Shown: positions 13,112 through 26,673, counted from the stretch's first letter. The stretch: 64,000 nt of DNA from Candidatus Berkelbacteria bacterium Licking1014_7 (GCA_007376535.1 VMGK01000005.1:2085-66084); one strand, 5' to 3'. Numbers and translations: made by a program. The notes: generated by a model not told the origin, from the letters alone.

Positions 13112-15382
13112 TCACAAATCCACCTCATAGCCATTTCCATCGGCTAAAATCCAGACCTTTTTACCTTTGTGATCCACTTGGAAACAAGTGGGTTTTTTGA
13201 TTGCGGGAGGAAAAAGATATTGTTTTAAGTAATTGCCGTCTTTGTCAAATTCTAAAACGCGCGCTTTGGTTTGGTCTAAAATATAAAGTGAAGAAATGGA
13301 TTCAGCTGTGTAGATATCAATCGGATTGGATAAATCATCAAACGTTTTGGGTAGATTTTTAAGTCGAAAATCAGTGGCCGCGCCCTTGCTAATTTTCAGG
13401 ACTTTATTTGGTAAAAGCGCGTAAATAGAATTGTCAATCGTAAGCGCGACTGCTTTTGACATCTGGTTTGCCAGCGCCGAGCCAGTGTAGGAGACCGGGT
13501 CTTGATAATTATTTTCGTTTTTGTTAAATTTCCAGATTTTCGCATCTTTTGCTGAAAACGCGTAAATATTGTCGGCAAAAATATCAAAATCAATCAGCGC
13601 GCCAGTTTTATTTTGAGGGAGATTAAGAGCGATTAGCCGTTCGTCCTCAGCATTGAAATTGTAAATTTCTCCGGCCTGAGTTAAAAGGTAAAAATGGCGA
13701 TCGTCAAATTTGATAAGGTCTTGCCATTTGCCAGCAATGGATGGAATTTCTTGCTTTTTACCAGATAAGATATTGATTTTTATAATTTTTTCATTTTCCA
13801 AAAGAAAGGCAGAGCCCTGAAAGGTGAACATTTTTTCACCTTTTAAGTCCGTGGCAAAGGGCGTCAAATTGAAATATCTTTTTGTCTGAGTGATTGAGTC
13901 GGCTTGATTGCTGGCTTGGCTGATAATTTTTTCCGCTTCGGTTTTGTACTCAGAGTTTTGAATTTTTTGCGCCAAATTTATCGCGTTTTCAAAAAGTTCA
14001 GTTGCAGTTTGCTTATCAGATAAAATTAAAGCGGATTTTCCTTCATCTAATTTTTTTTGCGCTTGGGATAGTGTCTCGGACTTTTGTTGGCTGGCAAGTT
14101 TTTGCGCTTGTTTTTTTCTTTGCACGCTGATAGAAACGATTAAAACGAAAATCAGTGTTACGGCGCATATCACAATCATTAACGGTCGTTTTTTGCTGGA
14201 TGAGTAATTTTTTCTAAAAAAATACCAAGCATTGTCGATTTTGATAATTACTTTTTTAATTGTTTGGTTGGCGGTTCTGACAATTTTTTTTGCGCTTGAT
14301 GTATGCTCATTTCTGTAATCATTGATGGTATAAATCGAGCGACCGATAAATGAATCGTTTTTGGTTGACGCGATTTCTGCCCCGTCCTTTTTAATTTTAA
14401 CTAAATTATCTCCAATAAATTTTTTGGCGCCGCCGCCGGTTTTTTGAATGATGGGTTTGGCTTTTTGAAAATATTCGCGCGATAATTGCCGAGAACGGTC
14501 TGACGCGGTTTTTAGAAATTTTTTACTTTGGGGAAGGTAGCGCGTTTTTGTCTTATTGATGCTGGCTTTGAGGTACTGATGGGTGTTTTGTCCGGTTTTC
14601 TTAACCCAGGGCAAAATATATTTTTTAGAAAATTTTATTGCTTGGCTCAACGCTGAGGCGGATTGTTTATCAACCGTCAGTTGAATATCTTGCACGGCTT
14701 GGTTTTCTACCGGGATTTCGACATTAAGAGTAAAAAAAGCGATCGCTTTGTCGCGCGTTTTTTTGAAGAAAGTAAAAATGTTTTCGCCTGCTTCAATAAA
14801 GTTTTGATTTGCGAAAAATTGCTTGACGATTTGCGAGGATAAGTGATTAAGCGCTTGAGAGTTGGCAAAAATTAATAAGTCGTTTGCATCAATGGAACCA
14901 GATGTGATATTAGAAAAGGTTTTAAGCGGATGGGGTCCGATAATTTGAATTTTTGAGTCAACAATTTCTGAAATTTTGTCATTGCGAATCAGCCAGGTCT
15001 TGATTTTTCCCGAGGTAGCAAGGTGTACTTGGTTTTGGATAGATAAGCAAAATATTGCGTTGAGGTTGCCGATCCAGCTGGTTTCGCCGTTTTGGCTGAT
15101 ATGCGCCAATGTTTCGTTAACTGACTTGAGCGCTTGTTCAAAATTCTGCAAATCAGAGGTGGATTCGCCAGAATAATAGGCGCGTTTTAGGGTATTAAGT
15201 ATGGTCTGTCCGATTTGGCGGTGGATTGAAGTGGCTTGCAAAATTTCTAACAAAACATAGATTTTGCCCATTTCCTGATGAATTTTGTCAGGCGATTCTA
15301 AAATTTGAGCCGTGATAAAACGCCCGGGAATTTGTCCAGAGTGTAAAATTTTGAGCGAGTTGAGGGTGAGGTTTTTGAGCAT
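13112..15382 (-). CDS. Large hypothetical membrane-anchored protein (single mid-protein TM, coiled coil, C-terminal β-propeller-like repeats)
   Basis: TM segment RPLMIVICAVTLIFVLIVSISV. Repetitive β-strand-rich C-terminus. No confident family. Confidence 0.45.
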   Translation of the reverse strand: MLKNLTLNSLKILHSGQIPGRFITAQILESPDKIHQEMGKIYVLLEILQATSIHRQIGQTILNTLKRAYYSGESTSDLQNFEQALKSVNETLAHISQNGETSWIGNLNAIFCLSIQNQVHLATSGKIKTWLIRNDKISEIVDSKIQIIGPHPLKTFSNITSGSIDANDLLIFANSQALNHLSSQIVKQFFANQNFIEAGENIFTFFKKTRDKAIAFFTLNVEIPVENQAVQDIQLTVDKQSASALSQAIKFSKKYILPWVKKTGQNTHQYLKASINKTKTRYLPQSKKFLKTASDRSRQLSREYFQKAKPIIQKTGGGAKKFIGDNLVKIKKDGAEIASTKNDSFIGRSIYTINDYRNEHTSSAKKIVRTANQTIKKVIIKIDNAWYFFRKNYSSSKKRPLMIVICAVTLIFVLIVSISVQRKKQAQKLASQQKSETLSQAQKKLDEGKSALILSDKQTATELFENAINLAQKIQNSEYKTEAEKIISQASNQADSITQTKRYFNLTPFATDLKGEKMFTFQGSAFLLENEKIIKINILSGKKQEIPSIAGKWQDLIKFDDRHFYLLTQAGEIYNFNAEDERLIALNLPQNKTGALIDFDIFADNIYAFSAKDAKIWKFNKNENNYQDPVSYTGSALANQMSKAVALTIDNSIYALLPNKVLKISKGAATDFRLKNLPKTFDDLSNPIDIYTAESISSLYILDQTKARVLEFDKDGNYLKQYLFPPAIKKPTCFQVDHKGKKVWILADGNGYEVDL

Positions 15383-15478
15383 AATAATCAAATCAAAAGT
15401 TATAAGTCCCCGAAGACAATGTGCTATCACTTGGCTTCAATCCTACGGATTGTAAAATTTTTGTAGCATTCATAGTTT

Positions 15479-16066
15479 TTATTTCTCCCAAATTATATGG
15501 CAGTTGATATTGTGTTTCTCATAATCTTTTAATACATCGGCGCAAAAATCCATCAACTCCTTATTTTTCTCGCTTTTGGCCAATTCATATAAACGAATAA
15601 ACATCTTTTTACCAGTTTCGGTCTGTTTGAGGTGTTTTTTAATAAAGTTGTGTTGAGCACATAAGGTCTGTCCATTTTCAACTATTGCTTTACCGCCTTC
15701 ATATCTTGATTTAATGTGATCAACTTGTAACTCAACTCCATCCTCTCTGCCTCGTCCACACAGGACACATTTATAGTCATCTCGTTTTAAGATAAATTCT
15801 TTTTGTTCAGGTGTAAAATCCTCTAAAATTCGTTGATTGACCATTTCGGGATCATATCTATATATTCCCTTATTTACTTTAACCAAAAAACCAACTTCGT
15901 GAAGATTTCTAATTGATCGCCAGGTATCTCTCGGTTTTTTATTATAAAGCCGCATGTACTTTGCTTCAACCCAATCAACAACTGGACCGTGTGGCATATC
16001 CTCTTTTGGATGTGCCTTGAAGTATTCAATAAGCAGGTCTCGTATTGATTTGTTTTTCTTTTTCAT
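15479..16066 (-). CDS. HNH endonuclease (probable restriction endonuclease partner of the adjacent methyltransferase)
   Basis: CVLCGRG...ELQVDHIKSRYEGG...NGQTLCAQHN (HNH with zinc-finger cysteines). Start at MKKKNK. Confidence 0.7.
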   Translation of the reverse strand: MKKKNKSIRDLLIEYFKAHPKEDMPHGPVVDWVEAKYMRLYNKKPRDTWRSIRNLHEVGFLVKVNKGIYRYDPEMVNQRILEDFTPEQKEFILKRDDYKCVLCGRGREDGVELQVDHIKSRYEGGKAIVENGQTLCAQHNFIKKHLKQTETGKKMFIRLYELAKSEKNKELMDFCADVLKDYEKHNINCHIIWEK

Positions 16067-16074
16067 AGTTATTA

Positions 16075-16914
16075 TTAAGTTAATAAATTTGGTTGATCTA
16101 TTTTTGCTTCTACCCGTAATCGCCTGATTGCTAAATCGCAATATTCTTTGTCAATATCAACACCAATTCCTTTTCTGTTGTGCAAATATGAAGCAATAAG
16201 CGTTGTTCCGCTACCCAAAAATGGGTCCAAAACTGTATCACCAATAAAACTAAATAATTTTATACATCGTCTCGGCAATTCAACCGGAAATGGCGCAGGA
16301 TGTCCGCCCGCCCCCTTTTTACTTTGGCCGGAGAATGTCCAAACACCATTTGTCCAATCCATAAATTCCTGCTTTGTAATGTCATTTTTCCTACTCCCGC
16401 CAGTTTTTTTCCAGCTGTCTTTATATAAAACTAAAATCAATTCAACAGGGGCAATGACATAAGGAGCTGAGGCAGACATATATGAACCCCAAGCGGTGCG
16501 GCGAGAAATATTTCCCTCGTTCCAGATAATCGTTGAGTGATATTTCCAGCCAATATCTTTTGCGATTTTTGTAATATCAGCGCCGACTGATTTTTGGCCA
16601 CCTTTATTTTTATCAAGAGGAATATTTAGCAAAAATCGTCCTTCCTTTTTTGCTAAATCAAAACATTTCTTAATCCATTTTTTGGTAAATTCTAAATAGT
16701 CTTCGTAAGTCAAATTGTCAGCGTGGGAATTGTAATGAATGTCAACATTATAAGGCGGTGAAGTAATAATTAGATCAACTGAATTTCCGGGTATGGCTGT
16801 AATCTTCAAAATATCGGCTTTGAAAATAGAAATTCCGTCTTTTTCAAAATATGGTTTTTGAGATTTCATCTCATCAATATTGCTAACTTGTTTTTCCGCC
16901 ATTATATTTTGCAT
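16075..16914 (-). CDS. β-class N4-cytosine/N6-adenine DNA methyltransferase
   Basis: Motif IV IITSPPYN near the N-terminus and motif I DPFLGSGTT near the C-terminus (N6_N4_Mtase order). Confidence 0.85.
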   Translation of the reverse strand: MQNIMAEKQVSNIDEMKSQKPYFEKDGISIFKADILKITAIPGNSVDLIITSPPYNVDIHYNSHADNLTYEDYLEFTKKWIKKCFDLAKKEGRFLLNIPLDKNKGGQKSVGADITKIAKDIGWKYHSTIIWNEGNISRRTAWGSYMSASAPYVIAPVELILVLYKDSWKKTGGSRKNDITKQEFMDWTNGVWTFSGQSKKGAGGHPAPFPVELPRRCIKLFSFIGDTVLDPFLGSGTTLIASYLHNRKGIGVDIDKEYCDLAIRRLRVEAKIDQPNLLT

Positions 16915-17204
16915 AAAATTTTTGTGATAAGCACAGCAACAGGGTTTATATCAATAGCAATTGATGGTCGTCCCATTACTTTTGATTCAACAAGCGTTGT
17001 GCCGCAACCACCAAATGGATCAACAATAGAATCACCCTCTCGCGTATATTTTTCCGCTAAGCGAGAGACAATTTGCGGAATAAACTTTGCGGGGTAGCGA
17101 TGATAGCCGTGCGTGATATACGTCGTGTCCTTCCTTGTTTTATCGGAAAAAGACCACGAATAATCAATTTTTGTCTTTGCGAGTAATGTTGTTATTTGTC
17201 TCAT
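16902..17204 (-). pseudogene. C-terminal fragment of an N6_N4 DNA methyltransferase (AdoMet-binding half only)
   Basis: HRYPAKFIPQIV...DSIVDPFGGCGTT...IAIDINP corresponds to the last ~100 aa of the N6_N4_Mtase domain. No DPPY motif. Confidence 0.5.
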
Positions 17205-17300
17205 AGCTTTTTTTTGTTAATTCCTCAATTTTCAAAATGTCTGAATTGGTCGCCTTTCGACTTGGCTCAAGGCGACTCTGAGATTGTCGTCTGGTCGTAA

Positions 17301-17313
17301 TTACTGAACGAAG
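17301..17313 (+). repeat. Left arm of a 13-bp inverted repeat TTACTGAACGAAG (partner at 18708-18720, next to tRNA-Pro)
   Basis: Exact 13-mer with extended 17/19 match. The two arms bracket the MTase fragment and the Bro-N gene. Confidence 0.5.
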
Positions 17314-17378
17314 CTCGAACCCCTTTCCTTTTTGCCCGCCCTCGCTTTCCGATTCCGATTTTACCGCCGCCGGAATCC

Positions 17379-17723
17379 TTATATCACTTGTAATTCCATC
17401 TGTAAATTTTTTCTCTCCGCTTTCCCCGTCTTAAACAAATTCGCTTTTTCATCCAATTCTTTTATTCTTCTTTCGGAAATTTTGACATACTTTTCGTTAG
17501 TATCAATTCCAATATTTTTTTCCCCTAACTTTTTTGCTGCCACAGCAGTTGTTCCGCTACCCATAAACGGATCAAAAACTAAATCACCCTTATTGCTTGC
17601 GGAAAGTAAAACTTGCTGAATTAACTTGAGCGGTTTTTGCGTTGGATGTGCTTTTATTCCATTTTCATCTCTTAATCTTTCTTGCCCTCTATACACACCA
17701 AAAACCCAATCAGTATCTTTCAT
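17379..17723 (-). CDS. Stand-alone C-terminal half of an N6_N4 DNA methyltransferase (HPTQKP...DPFMGSGTT)
   Basis: AHPTQKPLKLIQQVLLSASNKGDLVFDPFMGSGTTAVAAKKLGEKNIGIDTNEKY. The catalytic DPPY half is absent. 4-nt overlap with the upstream Bro-N gene. Confidence 0.5.
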   Translation of the reverse strand: MKDTDWVFGVYRGQERLRDENGIKAHPTQKPLKLIQQVLLSASNKGDLVFDPFMGSGTTAVAAKKLGEKNIGIDTNEKYVKISERRIKELDEKANLFKTGKAERKNLQMELQVI

Positions 17724-18562
17724 TTGTTATTCAAGTTTTTTCTTCTCTTTGCTTTCAGTAAATAATTTTTATTCGTCGGAACTTTTTTACCGCTTTTTCT
17801 TTCCAAATCTTTTCGTGCTTTGCCGGCTACACTTCCGCCTTCTTGCGCAACAATTTTATTTTCATTAAAACCTTGGGCATTTTTATTTTGAGCAATTTCC
17901 GTTGTTGACGCCTCTCCGAGCATTGAAAAAATTAACTCCAAATCATTCATATGATCTCGTAAATTCTCTCGCTTGAGTCCTTTGAATTTCTGATATTCGC
18001 TCGGCGTCATTCCAAAAGTTGCTTCGGAAATTTCAGCGGTTAAAATCGCGTATTCTTGGCCTTCCCTTACATCTCGTTTTTTCCATTCATTAGTCAGTGT
18101 TTCGCGAACTTCAATACCTCGCATCCTTTTTTCTATCCATGTATCAGAATATCCTTTGGCTTTATAAAGAGCTCGGGTTCTCTTAGTGGCTAACTCGGGG
18201 TCTTCAATTTCCTGTATTCTTTCATAGCCAACTCGAGCCAACCAACGTTTAAACGGTTCAGCTTTTGGCGACGGAATTGATTGAATAATGCGGAAAATGC
18301 CTTCCGTATTAGCGCTGGTTATCTTTCTTTTTTTGCCATCTTTAGCCACCATCTCAAGGAGGGGACAATTTGTCCCCCAGTAGACATTTAGCTCTTTGTC
18401 TCTCTTTCTCATCTTTTTTATATAATCTCTAACATCTACTGTATCGGTGAGCGCCCCAACTACATCCGCAACCGAAAACCACCATTCGTTTTTATGAATG
18501 ATTTTGCGAATTTCCTTTTTTTGGAAAATGGCAATTTTTGTAGTCGTAATTTTTCTGTTCAT
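17720..18562 (-). CDS. Bro-N domain protein (DinD / phage antirepressor-like)
   Basis: EWWFSVADVVGAL Bro-N signature. The C-terminal part resembles DNA-damage-inducible protein D. Confidence 0.55.
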   Translation of the reverse strand: MNRKITTTKIAIFQKKEIRKIIHKNEWWFSVADVVGALTDTVDVRDYIKKMRKRDKELNVYWGTNCPLLEMVAKDGKKRKITSANTEGIFRIIQSIPSPKAEPFKRWLARVGYERIQEIEDPELATKRTRALYKAKGYSDTWIEKRMRGIEVRETLTNEWKKRDVREGQEYAILTAEISEATFGMTPSEYQKFKGLKRENLRDHMNDLELIFSMLGEASTTEIAQNKNAQGFNENKIVAQEGGSVAGKARKDLERKSGKKVPTNKNYLLKAKRRKNLNNK

Positions 18563-18707
18563 AAAATTAAAATTTTAGTTTTTCTAACTCTAATCTCTTG
18601 TTGTAATAATTTATAATCTCATCATAATCTTTTACAACAAAACGATCTTCCAAAATTGAATAGGGTTCTCGCTCAAAATAGGTTCCCTCCAAAGGCGGGC
18701 AGGCGAT

Positions 18708-18720
18708 CTTCGTTCAGTAA
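18708..18720 (-). repeat. Right arm of the 13-bp inverted repeat TTACTGAACGAAG, immediately 3' of tRNA-Pro
   Basis: Reverse complement of 17301-17313. Confidence 0.5.
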
Positions 18721-18722
18721 AT

Positions 18723-18795
18723 TCGGGGTAGCCGGACTCGAACCGACGATCTTCGGACCCCCAGCCCGACGCTTTACCAACTAAGCTATACCCCG
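18723..18795 (-). tRNA. tRNA-Pro: tRNA-Pro (anticodon GGG)
   Basis: Cloverleaf read by hand: acceptor CGGGGTA/TACCCCG, D-loop AGTTGGTAA, anticodon loop CTGGGGG, T-loop GGTTCGAGTCC. No encoded CCA. Confidence 0.8.
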
Positions 18796-18912: not shown

Positions 18913-20022
18913 TTATTGATGCAAGCCGTTACTGAGTTGTTGTCTAATGCGTAAAACCTCAGCGGCATCAATTGCGTCTTGGGTTGCTTCGGTTTCTATT
19001 CTGGCTAATTCAGTATCTACTAATGCGGTAGTGTCTGTGTTTCCCAGAGTAGATAATTCTTTAAGTAATTGTTTCGCCTCAGCGATTCTTGTATGAATTA
19101 CTTGTTTTGCATCTTCGGTTTGAGATAAACGCAATTCATGTTCTAATCTTACAATTTGACTTGTGATTTGTCTTTGCAATTTGCCAAATTGTTTTGTCAA
19201 ATCATCGTTGCCCAATTGTCTGCGCCATTTTCTGCTTTTTAATCTTCTGGTAATTCTGTAGTAAAGAAAGCCCAAGTCAAATGATTTGGTTGCGTCGAAA
19301 GACCGCTTGATGAGCGCGCTAACTAGTCGGAATGTTCTAAACAAGATATAAACAATGCCGTCATAAAGAGCGACGATTAATATTCCGGGAAGTGAAAAAA
19401 TCATTACGATAGTAGAACTGATTACAGATAATCCGTTCCAAAATTCGCGTAATCCGCATCCCACACGTAGATATAAACCCAAAATCAATCCGCCCAATGC
19501 CCAAATAGTCAAGGGAAGCGATTTCCAGTGGCTATGTTTAAGATATGTTGGCGGTTTTAGCTTTTGAACCTTTTTGATCATATCTTGGGCATTAGTTTTG
19601 CCCAGCGCTACTTTTTCAAATTCAGGCGATTGAAGGTAATCGGGATTAACATTTGCCAACACAAATTGTAGTGCAGCCAATTGTTTTTTGGGGTCTTTTT
19701 CATCCAAAAGGGCTTTGGTTTGCCTGCCTCGCTCAAAGGCAATAATCGTGTCCTTTGGAGAATTTTTGGGGATCTGAATACCAACGTATCCTTGCCAAAA
19801 AGCGTTATTGTCAACAGCGGTTTGATAGGTTTCATATTTTCGCGTGAATTCTTGTCTTGTGTCATAATTGTCTATGCCTTTCGAAGACGAACAAAGCAAC
19901 GGCAGCACAATTATACAAACAATTATTAGAACTGAAAATTGTCCAAAAAATTCTGTATATATGGCTTCAGAAAATTTTAGATAATTTTTTTCTTTTGTTC
20001 TTCCTTTTGTTCTCATTGTCAA
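18913..20022 (-). CDS. Hypothetical membrane protein (N-terminal TM, two central TMs, C-terminal coiled coil)
   Basis: Hydrophobic segments plus a heptad-rich C-terminus. No family recognised. Confidence 0.4.
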   Translation of the reverse strand: MTMRTKGRTKEKNYLKFSEAIYTEFFGQFSVLIIVCIIVLPLLCSSSKGIDNYDTRQEFTRKYETYQTAVDNNAFWQGYVGIQIPKNSPKDTIIAFERGRQTKALLDEKDPKKQLAALQFVLANVNPDYLQSPEFEKVALGKTNAQDMIKKVQKLKPPTYLKHSHWKSLPLTIWALGGLILGLYLRVGCGLREFWNGLSVISSTIVMIFSLPGILIVALYDGIVYILFRTFRLVSALIKRSFDATKSFDLGFLYYRITRRLKSRKWRRQLGNDDLTKQFGKLQRQITSQIVRLEHELRLSQTEDAKQVIHTRIAEAKQLLKELSTLGNTDTTALVDTELARIETEATQDAIDAAEVLRIRQQLSNGLHQ

Positions 20023-23540: not shown

Positions 23541-23616
23541 GCCGAAGTAGCTCAGTGGTTAGAGCAACTGTTTTGTAAACAGTAGGTCGTGGGTTCGAAT
23601 CCCACTTTCGGCTCCA
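23541..23616 (+). tRNA. tRNA-Thr: tRNA-Thr (anticodon TGT), CCA encoded
   Basis: GCCGAAG acceptor, anticodon loop TTTGTAA, T-loop GGTTCGAATCC, 3' CCA. Confidence 0.85.
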
Positions 23617-23843
23617 GGCAATCGGCAGGCGGGTAAACTGCCAAGGTTCCGGTTCAAGCCCGGTGGTGGGCTTAGGCGATAGCAGGCGGGTAAACTATTG
23701 GCGTCAGTTAGATTCTGACAGGGGGCTTACTCTGGCGGATTGGGGTAAACAGCCGCAGGTTTCCCGCCTGATTTTGGCAAGAAACCGATGATAAAATAAT
23801 TTTTTCATTTTTCATTTTGATTTTTAATTTGTATATAGTATAT

Positions 23844-23930
23844 GCTAGGGTTCCAGAGTGGTCAAATGGACCTGACTGTAAATCAGGTGGCTTTGTGCCT
23901 TCGGGGGTTCGAATCCCTCCCCTAGCACCA
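23844..23930 (+). tRNA. tRNA-Tyr: tRNA-Tyr (anticodon GTA), long variable arm, CCA encoded
   Basis: Acceptor GCTAGGG/CCCTAGC, anticodon loop CTGTAAA, type II variable arm, GGTTCGAATCC. Confidence 0.85.
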
Positions 23931-24012
23931 ATCGCTTCGCAGTGGAAATCCGAAATTTGAAATTTGAAGTTTAGTATATGCTATATTCGAACCGTATTAT
24001 TTTTTTTGCAAT

Positions 24013-24084
<72 letters not shown>

Positions 24085-24215
24085 AAGTAAAAATTAATTT
24101 TTCGAAATTCAAGTATTGTAATTTGAGATTTACCTATTCCGTTTTCGTAAAATGCGAAATTTCGGGATTTCTGATTTCGTGCTTTGGATTTCGAATTTAC
24201 TCCGTAGGAGTTGTT

Positions 24216-24401
24216 GTGCCAAAAAATAAAAAAAGACCATCAATTTATTTGAAATGCGAAAAGTGCAAAAGTTTGAATTATTTGTCAGTTCGCAGTGTCA
24301 TTAATACTCCGGAAAAATTGGAATTGAAAAAATTCTGCAAAAAATGCCGGGCGCACACTTTGCATAAAGAAGCGAAAATTTCCAAGCCCCGTAAGAAATA
24401 A
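24216..24401 (+). CDS. rpmG: 50S ribosomal protein L33
   Basis: CEKC...TPEKLELKKFCKKC...HKEAKI matches L33. GTG start 5 nt after TAGGAG. Confidence 0.8.
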   Translation: MPKNKKRPSIYLKCEKCKSLNYLSVRSVINTPEKLELKKFCKKCRAHTLHKEAKISKPRKK

Positions 24402-24553
24402 ACCGAAAAGATTGAGTTAAGCAAGATGTATATTGCAATCGCGAGAATATAACCAATCAAGCCAAGAGAACAAATTTCTAACGGGGCAAGGCGAAGAAGT
24501 AAGAATCACCAATATTGTTTGTATCTTGTAATTTGGAATTTATGAAAAACTAC

Positions 24554-24627
24554 GGGGGCGTGGGTTAGTGGTAAACTATCGGTCTCCAAAACCGATGCCG
24601 GAGGTTCGATTCCTCCCGCCCCTGCCA
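24554..24627 (+). tRNA. tRNA-Trp: tRNA-Trp (anticodon CCA), CCA encoded
   Basis: Acceptor GGGGGCG/CGCCCCT (G-U closing pair), anticodon loop CTCCAAA, GGTTCGATTCC. Confidence 0.8.
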
Positions 24628-25006: not shown

Positions 25007-26011
25007 ATGGAAACAAAATCAAAAAATCGAGCATCAAGAAATAGAACCATAACTTTAGATAATGGCGAGATTTCTCGCTTGAGAAAGAAACTTGTCAAAA
25101 TAGATAAGCCGGTTTCTATTTCGGATATTGAGAATAAAACTATCAATCAAGATATTTTTCAGATTTTGGATTTTTTGCCAGATAATTTTGTTAATTTAGT
25201 TTTTGTAGACCCACCTTATAACTTAAACAAAACTTTTAACTTAACTGCTTTTAAGGCAATGGAGTCCGAAAAGTATGAGGAGTGGTTAGATTCGTGGGTT
25301 CAAAAAATAATCCGTTTATTAAAACCAAATGCATCGGTTTATATTTGTGGTGATTGGAAATCATCGGGAGCAATTTTTAATGTGGTAAAAAAATATTTTC
25401 AAATTCAAAATAGAATAACTTTTGAAAGAGAAAAAGGGCGGGGCGCAAAATCAAATTGGAAAAATTGCTCGGAAGATATTTGGTTTTGTACATTTTCAGA
25501 CAAGTATAACTTTGATGTTGATGCGGTAAAAATGACAAGGAAAGTTATTGCTCCATACAAAGACGAAAACGGAAATCCGAAAGATTGGGAAATAACGGAA
25601 AATGGAAATTATCGCATAACCCATCCCTCTAATATTTGGACCGACATTACAATTCCCTTTTGGTCTATGCCAGAAAATACTGACCACCCGACACAAAAAC
25701 CAGAAAAATTGGTTGCCAAAGTTATTTTGGCCAGTTCAAAACCAAATGATATTGTTTTTGATCCGTTTCTTGGTTCAGGCACAACATCTGTTGTGGCAAA
25801 AAAACTTGGTCGTAAATATGTTGGTATTGATATAGATGAATTATATTGTTGTTTGGCAGAAAAACGGCTTGAGATGGTTGATAATGACAAGACAATTCAG
25901 GGATATTCTGACGGAGTTTTTTGGGAAAGGAATACATTAAACGAACAAAATAATGGTAAAAATAAAAAGTCGGAAAATAATCATAATTTACTTTTTGATA
26001 AACTATTATAA
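25007..26011 (+). CDS. β-class N4C/N6A DNA methyltransferase (full length)
   Basis: VFVDPPYNL (motif IV) then HPTQKP...DPFLGSGTT (motif I). Confidence 0.85.
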   Translation: METKSKNRASRNRTITLDNGEISRLRKKLVKIDKPVSISDIENKTINQDIFQILDFLPDNFVNLVFVDPPYNLNKTFNLTAFKAMESEKYEEWLDSWVQKIIRLLKPNASVYICGDWKSSGAIFNVVKKYFQIQNRITFEREKGRGAKSNWKNCSEDIWFCTFSDKYNFDVDAVKMTRKVIAPYKDENGNPKDWEITENGNYRITHPSNIWTDITIPFWSMPENTDHPTQKPEKLVAKVILASSKPNDIVFDPFLGSGTTSVVAKKLGRKYVGIDIDELYCCLAEKRLEMVDNDKTIQGYSDGVFWERNTLNEQNNGKNKKSENNHNLLFDKLL

Positions 26012-26013
26012 AT

Positions 26014-26673
26014 ATGAAAAGTCAAATATTTTACGCAGATGAGTATAAAAAATTAGAAAAGAAAATCACCGAGTTTCTTAATTCTCAAACTGATTTTTTA
26101 TCTCCACGCACAATCGACAGCCCTCGAGCTGTCGGCGACGCAATACAGGATTTATTGGCAGATAATTTTGGTAAAATTCTAGGCGATTTAAGCTCAAATT
26201 ATTCTTCGGATTTTGCCAGACGCGCCATGGCGGATTTAGCCTTTAATGACAAAGATGGGTTTTATTATGTTGTTGATGTAAAAACCCATAGATTAGATTC
26301 AAGTTTCAATATGCCAAATCTTACATCAGTTGAAAGATTGGCAAGATTTTATGAAGATGATAAAAATTATTTCATAGTATTAAAAACCGATTATAAAATT
26401 CAAAAAACAAAAATAATTATAGACAAAGTTAATTTCGTTCCGATTGAATTTTTGGGCTGGGATTGTTTGACGCTTGGTGCTCTCGGTTGGGGGCAAATAC
26501 AAATCGCTAATTCAAATAATGTTAGTATAGTTGCTAAAAACAGCAGAAAAAAGTGGATGTTGGAATTATGTGATTCTCTTTTTGAATTTTATCCAAGAGA
26601 GATTGGAAAAATAAACGACAGAATTTTATATTTCAAGCGTGTTAGAAAATACTGGGAAGGTAAAAAGGGATAA
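26014..26673 (+). CDS. Putative type II restriction endonuclease (PD-(D/E)xK)
   Basis: Begins 3 nt after the methyltransferase stop. D...VDVK arrangement (DLAFNDKDGFYYVVDVKTH) fits PD-(D/E)xK. No other homology recognisable. Confidence 0.5.
   Translation: MKSQIFYADEYKKLEKKITEFLNSQTDFLSPRTIDSPRAVGDAIQDLLADNFGKILGDLSSNYSSDFARRAMADLAFNDKDGFYYVVDVKTHRLDSSFNMPNLTSVERLARFYEDDKNYFIVLKTDYKIQKTKIIIDKVNFVPIEFLGWDCLTLGALGWGQIQIANSNNVSIVAKNSRKKWMLELCDSLFEFYPREIGKINDRILYFKRVRKYWEGKKG

Follow-up and report, generated by a model that had tools for sequence, protein, structure and literature searches.

Restriction-modification (R-M) systems are mobile, both their movement and their allelic replacement having reportedly been described by Kobayashi and co-workers, and they may enclose other genes, the classical paradigm of an embedded gene being PrrC inside the EcoprrI Type I R-M locus. 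HNH restriction enzymes include R.KpnI, R.Hpy99I and R.PacI. Free-standing endonuclease cassettes are also able to split genes, as they do in phages T4 (mobA in gene 39-60) and Aeh1 (mobE in nrdA), and tRNA genes are known sites for genomic islands. Here we analyse a stretch of 64,000 nucleotides, referred to below as the window, from Candidatus Berkelbacteria bacterium Licking1014_7 (GCA_007376535.1 VMGK01000005.1:2085-66084), a member of the Candidate Phyla Radiation (CPR), in which genes for an HNH endonuclease, a DNA methyltransferase, two methyltransferase fragments and a Bro-N protein lie beside tRNA-Pro and recall each of these systems in part.

The segment at 15431-18722 is probably, if well short of certainly, a composite defence island, in which two unrelated defence modules were brought together by recombination, the methyltransferase 'halves' are scars, a 13-bp inverted repeat is incidental, and no single integrating or inverting element is involved. 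The modules would have gathered in the interval that separates tRNA-Pro from the conserved gene following it. The two stumps derive from two different methyltransferase genes, and it is therefore as scars of recombination that these 'halves', which bind S-adenosylmethionine (AdoMet), are interpreted here.

An initial annotation had listed the open reading frames (ORFs) and the tRNA gene of this segment; all are confirmed in position, and their domain assignments hold against Pfam. The features are given below by position in the window, M2 being the name used here for a beta-class methyltransferase of the CcrM/HinfI type, 257-265 aa long. Loci fetched for comparison bear numbers preceded by L.

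15479-16066, minus strand: HNH endonuclease, 195 aa (PF01844, E=2.6e-7; weak PADLOC REase_II matches)
16075-16914, minus strand: M279, intact beta-class DNA methyltransferase, 279 aa (motif IV TSPPY, motif I DPFLGSGTT)
16818-16934, minus strand: junction tract, 117 nt, spanning the junction between stump and M279 (1 mismatch against L175, with flanks ~12% different)
16902-17204, minus strand: 5' stump, 100 codons, of a permuted N6_N4 methyltransferase of ~430-440 aa (Pfam model positions 139-218)
17301-17313, no strand: inverted-repeat arm B, in the 174-nt spacer separating the two modules
17379-17723, minus strand: 3' stump of M2, 114 codons, corresponding to residues ~156-258 (Pfam model positions 149-220; motifs X and I-III only)
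17720-18562, minus strand: Bro-N / DinD-like gene, 280 aa (Pfam Bro-N, E=2.7e-13)
18708-18720, no strand: inverted-repeat arm A, in the spacer (160 nt) that precedes Bro-N, 2 nt past the tRNA 3' end
18723-18795, minus strand: tRNA-Pro(GGG) (ARAGORN; Rfam tRNA, 66 bits), the native gene of the site, the island beginning 3' of it
13112-15430, minus strand: conserved flanking gene, a 772-aa ORF that directly follows tRNA-Pro in relatives
18913-20022, minus strand: membrane / coiled-coil ORF, 369 aa, between peptidase M50 and tRNA-Pro

An insertion beside tRNA-Pro

Contigs carrying orthologs of the 772-aa flanking protein (identity 47% and lower) have the gene order TPR, DNA polymerase III delta', zinc-finger protein, peptidase M50, tRNA-Pro(GGG), ortholog and beta-CASP nuclease. 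At the loci L177/L178 and L179/L180, the M50 gene, tRNA-Pro(GGG) and a gene for an ortholog of 761 or 737 aa (47% identical) are contiguous, the gap between tRNA and ortholog being only 18 nt (L177) or 145 nt (L179). Because these three genes adjoin in relatives, the segment at 15431-18722 is a real insertion 3' of the tRNA, 3.3 kb in size, and the island previously proposed at tRNA-Pro is thus borne out in its location, L177-L180 having the site without the island.

The backbone is broken twice in the window, once 3' of the tRNA, by a block of five genes (~15431-18722), and once 5' of it, by the 369-aa ORF. The latter has no Pfam or PHROG match and, since it is missing from the orthologous loci L177-L180, constitutes a second, separate insertion. 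The true start of the 772-aa ORF is probably Met17, at ~15382; a scan of GTDB genomes with this flanking protein returned one match, of 27% identity.

A putative Type II R-M pair

The first of the two modules consists of M279, the HNH nuclease and the 100-codon stump preceding them (15479-17204). M279 covers positions 1-220 of the 221 of the N6_N4_Mtase model PF01555 (Pfam, E=5e-47) and also matches the PADLOC family MTase_II PDLC03353 (E=1.7e-96); complete catalytic and AdoMet-binding motifs can both be read in it, and the closest solved structures are TTHA0409 (2zie) and N4-cytosine methyltransferases. The HNH gene starts after a gap of 8 nt from the M279 stop. Its core, CxxC...DHI...N...CxxHN, is invariant in three homologs, in which the N-terminal ~80 residues are also kept. 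A single-sequence structure model of this protein was unusable (predicted local distance difference test score, pLDDT, of 37).

The two genes are co-inherited as a pair across unrelated replicons. On a phage contig (L176), the gene for a 61% identical methyltransferase overlaps that for a 58% identical HNH protein, and the plasmid pCALNI01 of Calditerrivibrio nitroreducens (Deferribacterota) carries the same pair, with a methyltransferase ~61% identical to M279; the HNH partners on these two replicons are 58-62% identical to that of the window. A scan of viral contigs with the HNH protein gave no match. The plasmid pair, annotated as a site-specific DNA-methyltransferase (WP_013447291) and an HNH endonuclease (WP_013447292), is the nearest annotated equivalent. 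The likeness to Type II R-M systems with an HNH nuclease extends from the arrangement, a compact beta-class N6_N4 methyltransferase followed by a small HNH nuclease, to the horizontal movement of the pair between unrelated replicons. The window pair differs in the coupled stump ahead of it, 100 codons from another methyltransferase, which is lacking beside the pair in both L176 and pCALNI01, and in the conserved ~80-aa N-terminal region of its nuclease.

Judging from these motifs and neighbourhoods, the HNH protein is likely the restriction partner of M279, and the module is a putative Type II R-M pair, probably active. M279 would mark the host DNA, probably with N4-methylcytosine (m4C) or N6-methyladenine (m6A), and the nuclease would cut incoming DNA that is unmarked.

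The 100-codon stump upstream of M279

Both methyltransferase fragments had been described as C-terminal halves without the catalytic half. This holds for the 114-aa ORF discussed below; the 100-aa ORF is instead the N-terminal quarter of a permuted methyltransferase, with motif I first and SPPY late, and its match to the C-terminal part of the Pfam model is due only to the beta-class order in which that model arranges the motifs. Full-length relatives of 429-441 aa, 60-70% identical, align with the 100-aa ORF at their residues ~14-113 (HMMER), and relatives on viral contigs display the entire permuted architecture. The remainder of the permuted gene is not in the window, as judged by tblastn with the missing parts. 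The ORF has the C-terminus ...DINPVAVLITK/ILCKI*, its stop codon and the second ATG of M279 overlapping as TAATG.

It would seem that the R-M pair landed inside a resident gene for a permuted methyltransferase of ~430 aa, or replaced its 3' three-quarters, so that the first 100 codons of that gene would survive as a separate ORF, upstream of the new methyltransferase gene and coupled to it in translation. A 1.1-kb contig from the Joint Genome Institute (JGI), L175, shares the 100-aa ORF, the junction and the start of M279 with the window, and its upstream DNA is unrelated; the block of three genes (stump, M279, HNH) is therefore a unit with a history of its own.

The near-identity of the 117-nt junction tract in L175 suggests either recent recombination or gene conversion, or an element acting at the nucleotide or regulatory level. 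The tract encloses a promoter-like TTATCA-18-TATAAT and encodes the N-terminal 32 residues of M279, which are not kept in distant homologs. No significant RNA fold was found in it on either strand, and a scan of viral contigs with the tract gave no match. A programmed frameshift joining the 100-aa ORF to M279 was also considered; the frames allow it, and no support for it was found.

Bro-N and the operons related to the M2 stump

The Bro-N protein is a full-length match to the PADLOC family PDC-S13 (E=6.8e-118, positions 4-275 of 286) and also matches phrog_15286 (E=1e-97). PDC systems were predicted by 'guilt-by-embedding', from genes enclosed within loci for BREX, DISARM and Type I R-M (Payne et al. 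2024, bioRxiv 10.1101/2024.01.29.577857). Our literature search returned no paper that mentions PDC-S13. Over window positions 18547-17880, the gene is ~80% identical at the nucleotide level to those of L004-L006. Plasmid homologs are solitary genes located between cas4 and cas1, beside DUF4942 or beside a nucleotidyltransferase/DUF86 pair; the first of these settings is that of a 48% identical homolog within a type I-B CRISPR-Cas operon on the Arcobacter cloacae plasmid pACLO (L183:4995-5891). In other loci (L005, L013, L100 and L103-105), Bro-N/PDC-S13 is embedded between an HNH_2 gene and a methyltransferase gene, and in the window it adjoins the R-M pair. Solitary PDC-S13 genes typically sit within other defence operons, and the Bro-N gene of the window is, from its family and setting, a candidate defence gene of the embedded type.

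Directly after Bro-N comes the 114-codon stump, the ATG of which overlaps the Bro-N stop codon (ATGA). Homology to other M2 stumps begins ~10 nt before this ATG. Full-length parents of 257-265 aa are present at L029, L096, L097, L107 and L110-112, and an unbiased metagenome scan at the DNA level recovered 18 close relatives of M2 (66-77% identical), ~10 of them full-length. No N-terminal half of M2 is found in the window: when the parts missing from the two parent families were searched for there by tblastn, the only matches were to M279, which is intact, and to an unrelated methyltransferase of 334 aa (25007-26011).

The origin of such stumps is apparent from related operons. Intact operons come in two forms, one with a controller gene, a PF09520 nuclease, a Dam-like D12 methyltransferase and M2 (L107), the other with a controller, M1, a 287-aa nuclease and M2 (L029, L110). 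(PF09520 is RE_TdeIII in Pfam-A and is labelled HinfI in precomputed tables.) In other CPR genomes, a derived operon consists of the controller, the PF09520 nuclease, HNH_2, either Bro-N (PDC-S13) or KilA-N (PDC-S22), and a 5'-truncated M2, with truncation points that vary (residues 34, 58, 106, 118 and 156). The nuclease is intact and constrained in these derived operons, although they contain no complete methyltransferase (e.g. L104).

How cassette replacement turns an intact R-M operon into the derived one is seen in L104 and L107. These strains are 99.8-99.9% identical over 3 kb and 7.4 kb of flanking sequence, and between the flanks (L104:3087-4677, L107:5289-6824) the nuclease 3' end, the Dam-like methyltransferase and M2 codons 1-107 of L107 are exchanged in L104 for a nuclease 3' end, HNH_2 and a Bro-N gene, the latter frameshifted. 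Both endpoints fall inside genes, those for the PF09520 nuclease and M2, and no terminal repeats are evident at them. Given so clean a swap, cassettes therefore move by recombination within flanking genes. In the window, Bro-N would likewise have truncated a resident M2 gene, and only the tail of such an operon would have been kept. An interruption of M2 resembling an intron or an intein was ruled out, as the resident N-terminal part and the stump of L011 overlap by ~20 homologous residues.

These operons resemble the loci from which the PDC families were predicted in that both embedded genes, the full-length PDC-S13 match and the KilA-N gene (PDC-S22) found at the same slot in relatives, lie inside an R-M operon. 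They differ in that the host operon is Type II-like (a PF09520 nuclease and two methyltransferases), whereas the PDC set comes from BREX, DISARM and Type I R-M, and in that the embedding has destroyed methyltransferase genes, the host operon being reduced in the window to a tail of 114 codons.

The slot following M2-type stumps (L005, L007, L011, L013, L025) holds differing genes of defence type, namely SduA_C/Shedu, SLFN_AlbA_2, a membrane protein with a ThsB-like TIR, HARE-HTH and an Eco57I-like Type IIG enzyme, and these stump-bearing operons appear to be cassette hotspots in CPR genomes. At another locus (L019:5502-6527), a 161-aa stump from the permuted methyltransferase family is followed by a 341-aa protein without Pfam or PADLOC match. 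By eye, its N-terminus is EVE/PUA-like and a PD-(D/E)xK motif may be present; the next ORF is a second methyltransferase, which starts at motif I.

Scars or working parts

Several observations count against taking the stumps as mere scars and the island as a patchwork. Substitution rates (nonsynonymous over synonymous, dN/dS or omega between pairs, pN/pS for proportions), all obtained with our own Nei-Gojobori script, indicate constraint on the stumps: the 100-aa ORF has dN 0.047 and dS 0.87 against L175, hence an omega of 0.054 across an identical junction, nearly equal to that of the adjacent intact M279 (0.050 at dS 0.92). M2 stumps sharing the same junction have pN/pS of 0.03-0.07 (L095/L099/L100) and 0.05 (L007/L011), and the Bro-N, KilA-N and HNH_2 genes next to them co-diverge at similar pS. 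All of the truncated M2 stumps examined (13/13) are in frame, in loci where neighbouring genes are frameshifted, and truncated and full-length copies of M2 are equally constrained overall (0.16 vs 0.15). Such constraint is unexpected for pure scars. Furthermore, the activity of the methyltransferase, the nuclease and Bro-N is predicted from sequence, and the island has no recombinase and no repeat to account for the modules reaching this exact site.

An alternative is thus that the stumps are working small AdoMet-binding proteins kept by selection, for example AdoMet sensors or assembly partners acting as subunits or regulators of M279 and its nuclease (the 100-aa ORF) or of Bro-N/KilA-N and HNH_2 (the 114-aa ORF). 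Besides the constraint, this would fit the translational coupling of the start codons to the neighbouring gene (ATGA, TAATG) and the invariance of the motifs HPTQKP and DPFMGSGTT across 35 M2 sequences. The copy in the window, however, is the most deviant of the 35 at conserved columns (7/56), and its pN/pS against its nearest relatives is 0.36, other pairs having 0.03-0.15; it looks to be under relaxed constraint. Cassette swaps can also renew a stump from a functional full-length gene: the stump regions of L104 and of L107, where M2 is full-length, are identical. A stump can thus be the resident's own recently functional sequence, and recombination can therefore mimic purifying selection. 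The near-identical junction tract of the 100-aa ORF hints at recent recombination as well, and elsewhere there are PDC-S13 homologs, and copies of the methyltransferase-HNH pair, that have no stump beside them. A fragment with only two or three Rossmann-type strands is not expected to fold on its own. We consider it unlikely that the stumps are working proteins.

The related proposal that, in CPR, a methyltransferase gene invaded by a cassette yields a new defence component rather than a scar seems to us unlikely; it must also explain the intact and constrained PF09520 nuclease that has no complete methyltransferase beside it.

Other interpretations of the fragments fare less well. Decayed paralogs, as had been suggested, are not what they are: the stumps come from two methyltransferase families, neither of them that of M279, and no decay is seen where a truncation is shared. 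In a split methyltransferase made of two polypeptides, or in the split phage genes mentioned above, where both halves reassemble into an active enzyme, a complementary part is at hand, whereas here the catalytic half is absent, no complementary half with motifs IV-VIII being located nearby in the window; methyltransferase reconstitution is therefore impossible from this locus. Families of conserved stand-alone halves lacking a full-length parent were ruled out too, as the metagenome scan and exhaustive HMMER searches found many full-length parents. A word-indexed protein search with the 100-114-aa queries returned almost only short proteins, and its length distributions do not reflect biology. 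The literature search found no paper that deals with truncated methyltransferases beside Bro-N or with methyltransferase fragments in CPR.

These loci resemble mobile R-M units and phage cassettes, the arrival of which leaves 5' or 3' gene pieces as separate ORFs, and the swap between L104 and L107 is an allelic one at the strain level.

The ends of the island and the inverted repeat

The island could also be a single integrative element targeting the tRNA-Pro 3' end, the 13-bp repeats being the termini of that element or of a nested Bro-N cassette. It lies directly 3' of the tRNA, is absent from the orthologous site and carries defence genes, all of which it has in common with tRNA-linked genomic islands, and its genes differ in GC skew from the adjacent gene, which is on the same strand. 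The 13-mer TTACTGAACGAAG does occur, as first noted, in inverted orientation at exactly two places, with a match that extends to 16/17 or, ungapped, to 19/22. Its arms bracket precisely Bro-N and the M2 stump, arm A being 145 nt upstream of Bro-N and arm B 65 nt downstream of the stop codon of the stump.

Against this, no integrase, transposase or recombinase was found in the island's own ORFs or in the genes called for the surrounding 17.7-kb locus (L001), and the tRNA 3' end (as a 22-mer or a 15-mer, with up to 3 mismatches) has no second match anywhere in the window, nor is there a target-site duplication outside the arms. The integrated element with defined ends that had been envisaged is not upheld by these results. 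The island further departs from typical tRNA-linked islands, having neither an integrase nor a duplicated tRNA 3' end, by its small size and by its composition of two independent modules, which have separate histories and different neighbours elsewhere. The one Bro-N cassette movement that was observed, that between L104 and L107, had its endpoints inside genes.

The repeat itself does not behave as a terminus. TTACTGAACGAAG was found in none of the 178 other fetched loci (0/178), more than 20 of which have a Bro-N gene paired with a methyltransferase stump. Arm B is not in L175, although L175 shares the module just downstream, and the post-tRNA sequences of the orthologous loci L177 and L179 are unrelated to arm A. 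Arm B was ruled out as a decayed copy of the tRNA, the local alignment stopping at 17 nt and revealing no more similarity to the tRNA or to its trailer. In the window there are 15 distinct inverted pairs of 13 nt or longer with a spacing of 200-2000 nt, against 6.0 +/- 2.4 expected from first-order Markov simulations, and a pair such as this one is statistically unremarkable.

This surplus is probably accounted for by repeats of another kind. The intergenic motif TTTGCCTGCCC has 16 copies (up to 1 mismatch) in the window, where 1.6 are expected; they include the following, in which (-) denotes the minus strand.

6698, 7101(-), 8849, 8874, 23516, 31964(-), 33736, 33761, 46950, 49377(-), 55846(-): copies of TTTGCCTGCCC

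Degenerate copies lie beside both arms, at 17331-17341 (arm B) and 18695(-) (arm A). TTTGCCTGCCC forms part of at least two intergenic hairpin repeats of ~50 nt resembling repetitive extragenic palindromes (REP). Rfam identified only the tRNA and no other RNA element, and the folding of both spacers and of the junction tract was no better than that of shuffled sequences (z = 0.58, -1.04, 0.19 and 0.14). The 13-bp inverted repeat is probably a coincidence, and a single integrative element, largely refuted by the evidence above, is very improbable.

That the repeats drive an inversion switching the expression or the specificity of a methyltransferase, as a shufflon or a phase-variable R-M system would, can be all but set aside: an exact 13-bp inverted repeat with a spacing of 1.4 kb does exist, as do three direct copies within 1.4 kb of the 59-nt motif-I region that is all M279 and the stumps share (69-73% identical), but the arms are unconserved, within chance expectation and situated in non-coding spacers, so that an inversion would fuse no reading frames, no invertase is present, the orientation is the same in both assemblies of this genome (two assemblies only), and the two half-ORFs, once seen as possible spare specificity cassettes, carry AdoMet-binding motifs and no alternative target-recognition domains.

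Another methyltransferase gene in the window

Downstream of a cluster of tRNA genes (23541-24627), the window contains a second beta-class methyltransferase, the 334-aa protein mentioned above, with a complete PF01555 domain and likeness to adenine methyltransferases; 2 nt after it begins a 219-aa ORF without family match (both within 25007-26673, plus strand). These two genes may be a second R-M pair.

Significance for defence loci in CPR genomes

As a new example of things already known, the island combines a PDC-S13 gene with an R-M pair that has an HNH nuclease, at a defence hotspot adjacent to a tRNA gene. Were the stumps functional, they would represent a new class of small defence-associated proteins, and the evidence does not separate this from their repeated renewal by recombination. 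What appeared to be a switching or invertible element resolves to an ordinary patchwork of a putative R-M pair, a candidate defence gene and two stumps. The related loci, above all L104 and L107, provide a clear natural case in which one defence cassette takes the place of another within an R-M operon, and such recombinational replacement explains why methyltransferase fragments are so common in CPR metagenomes.

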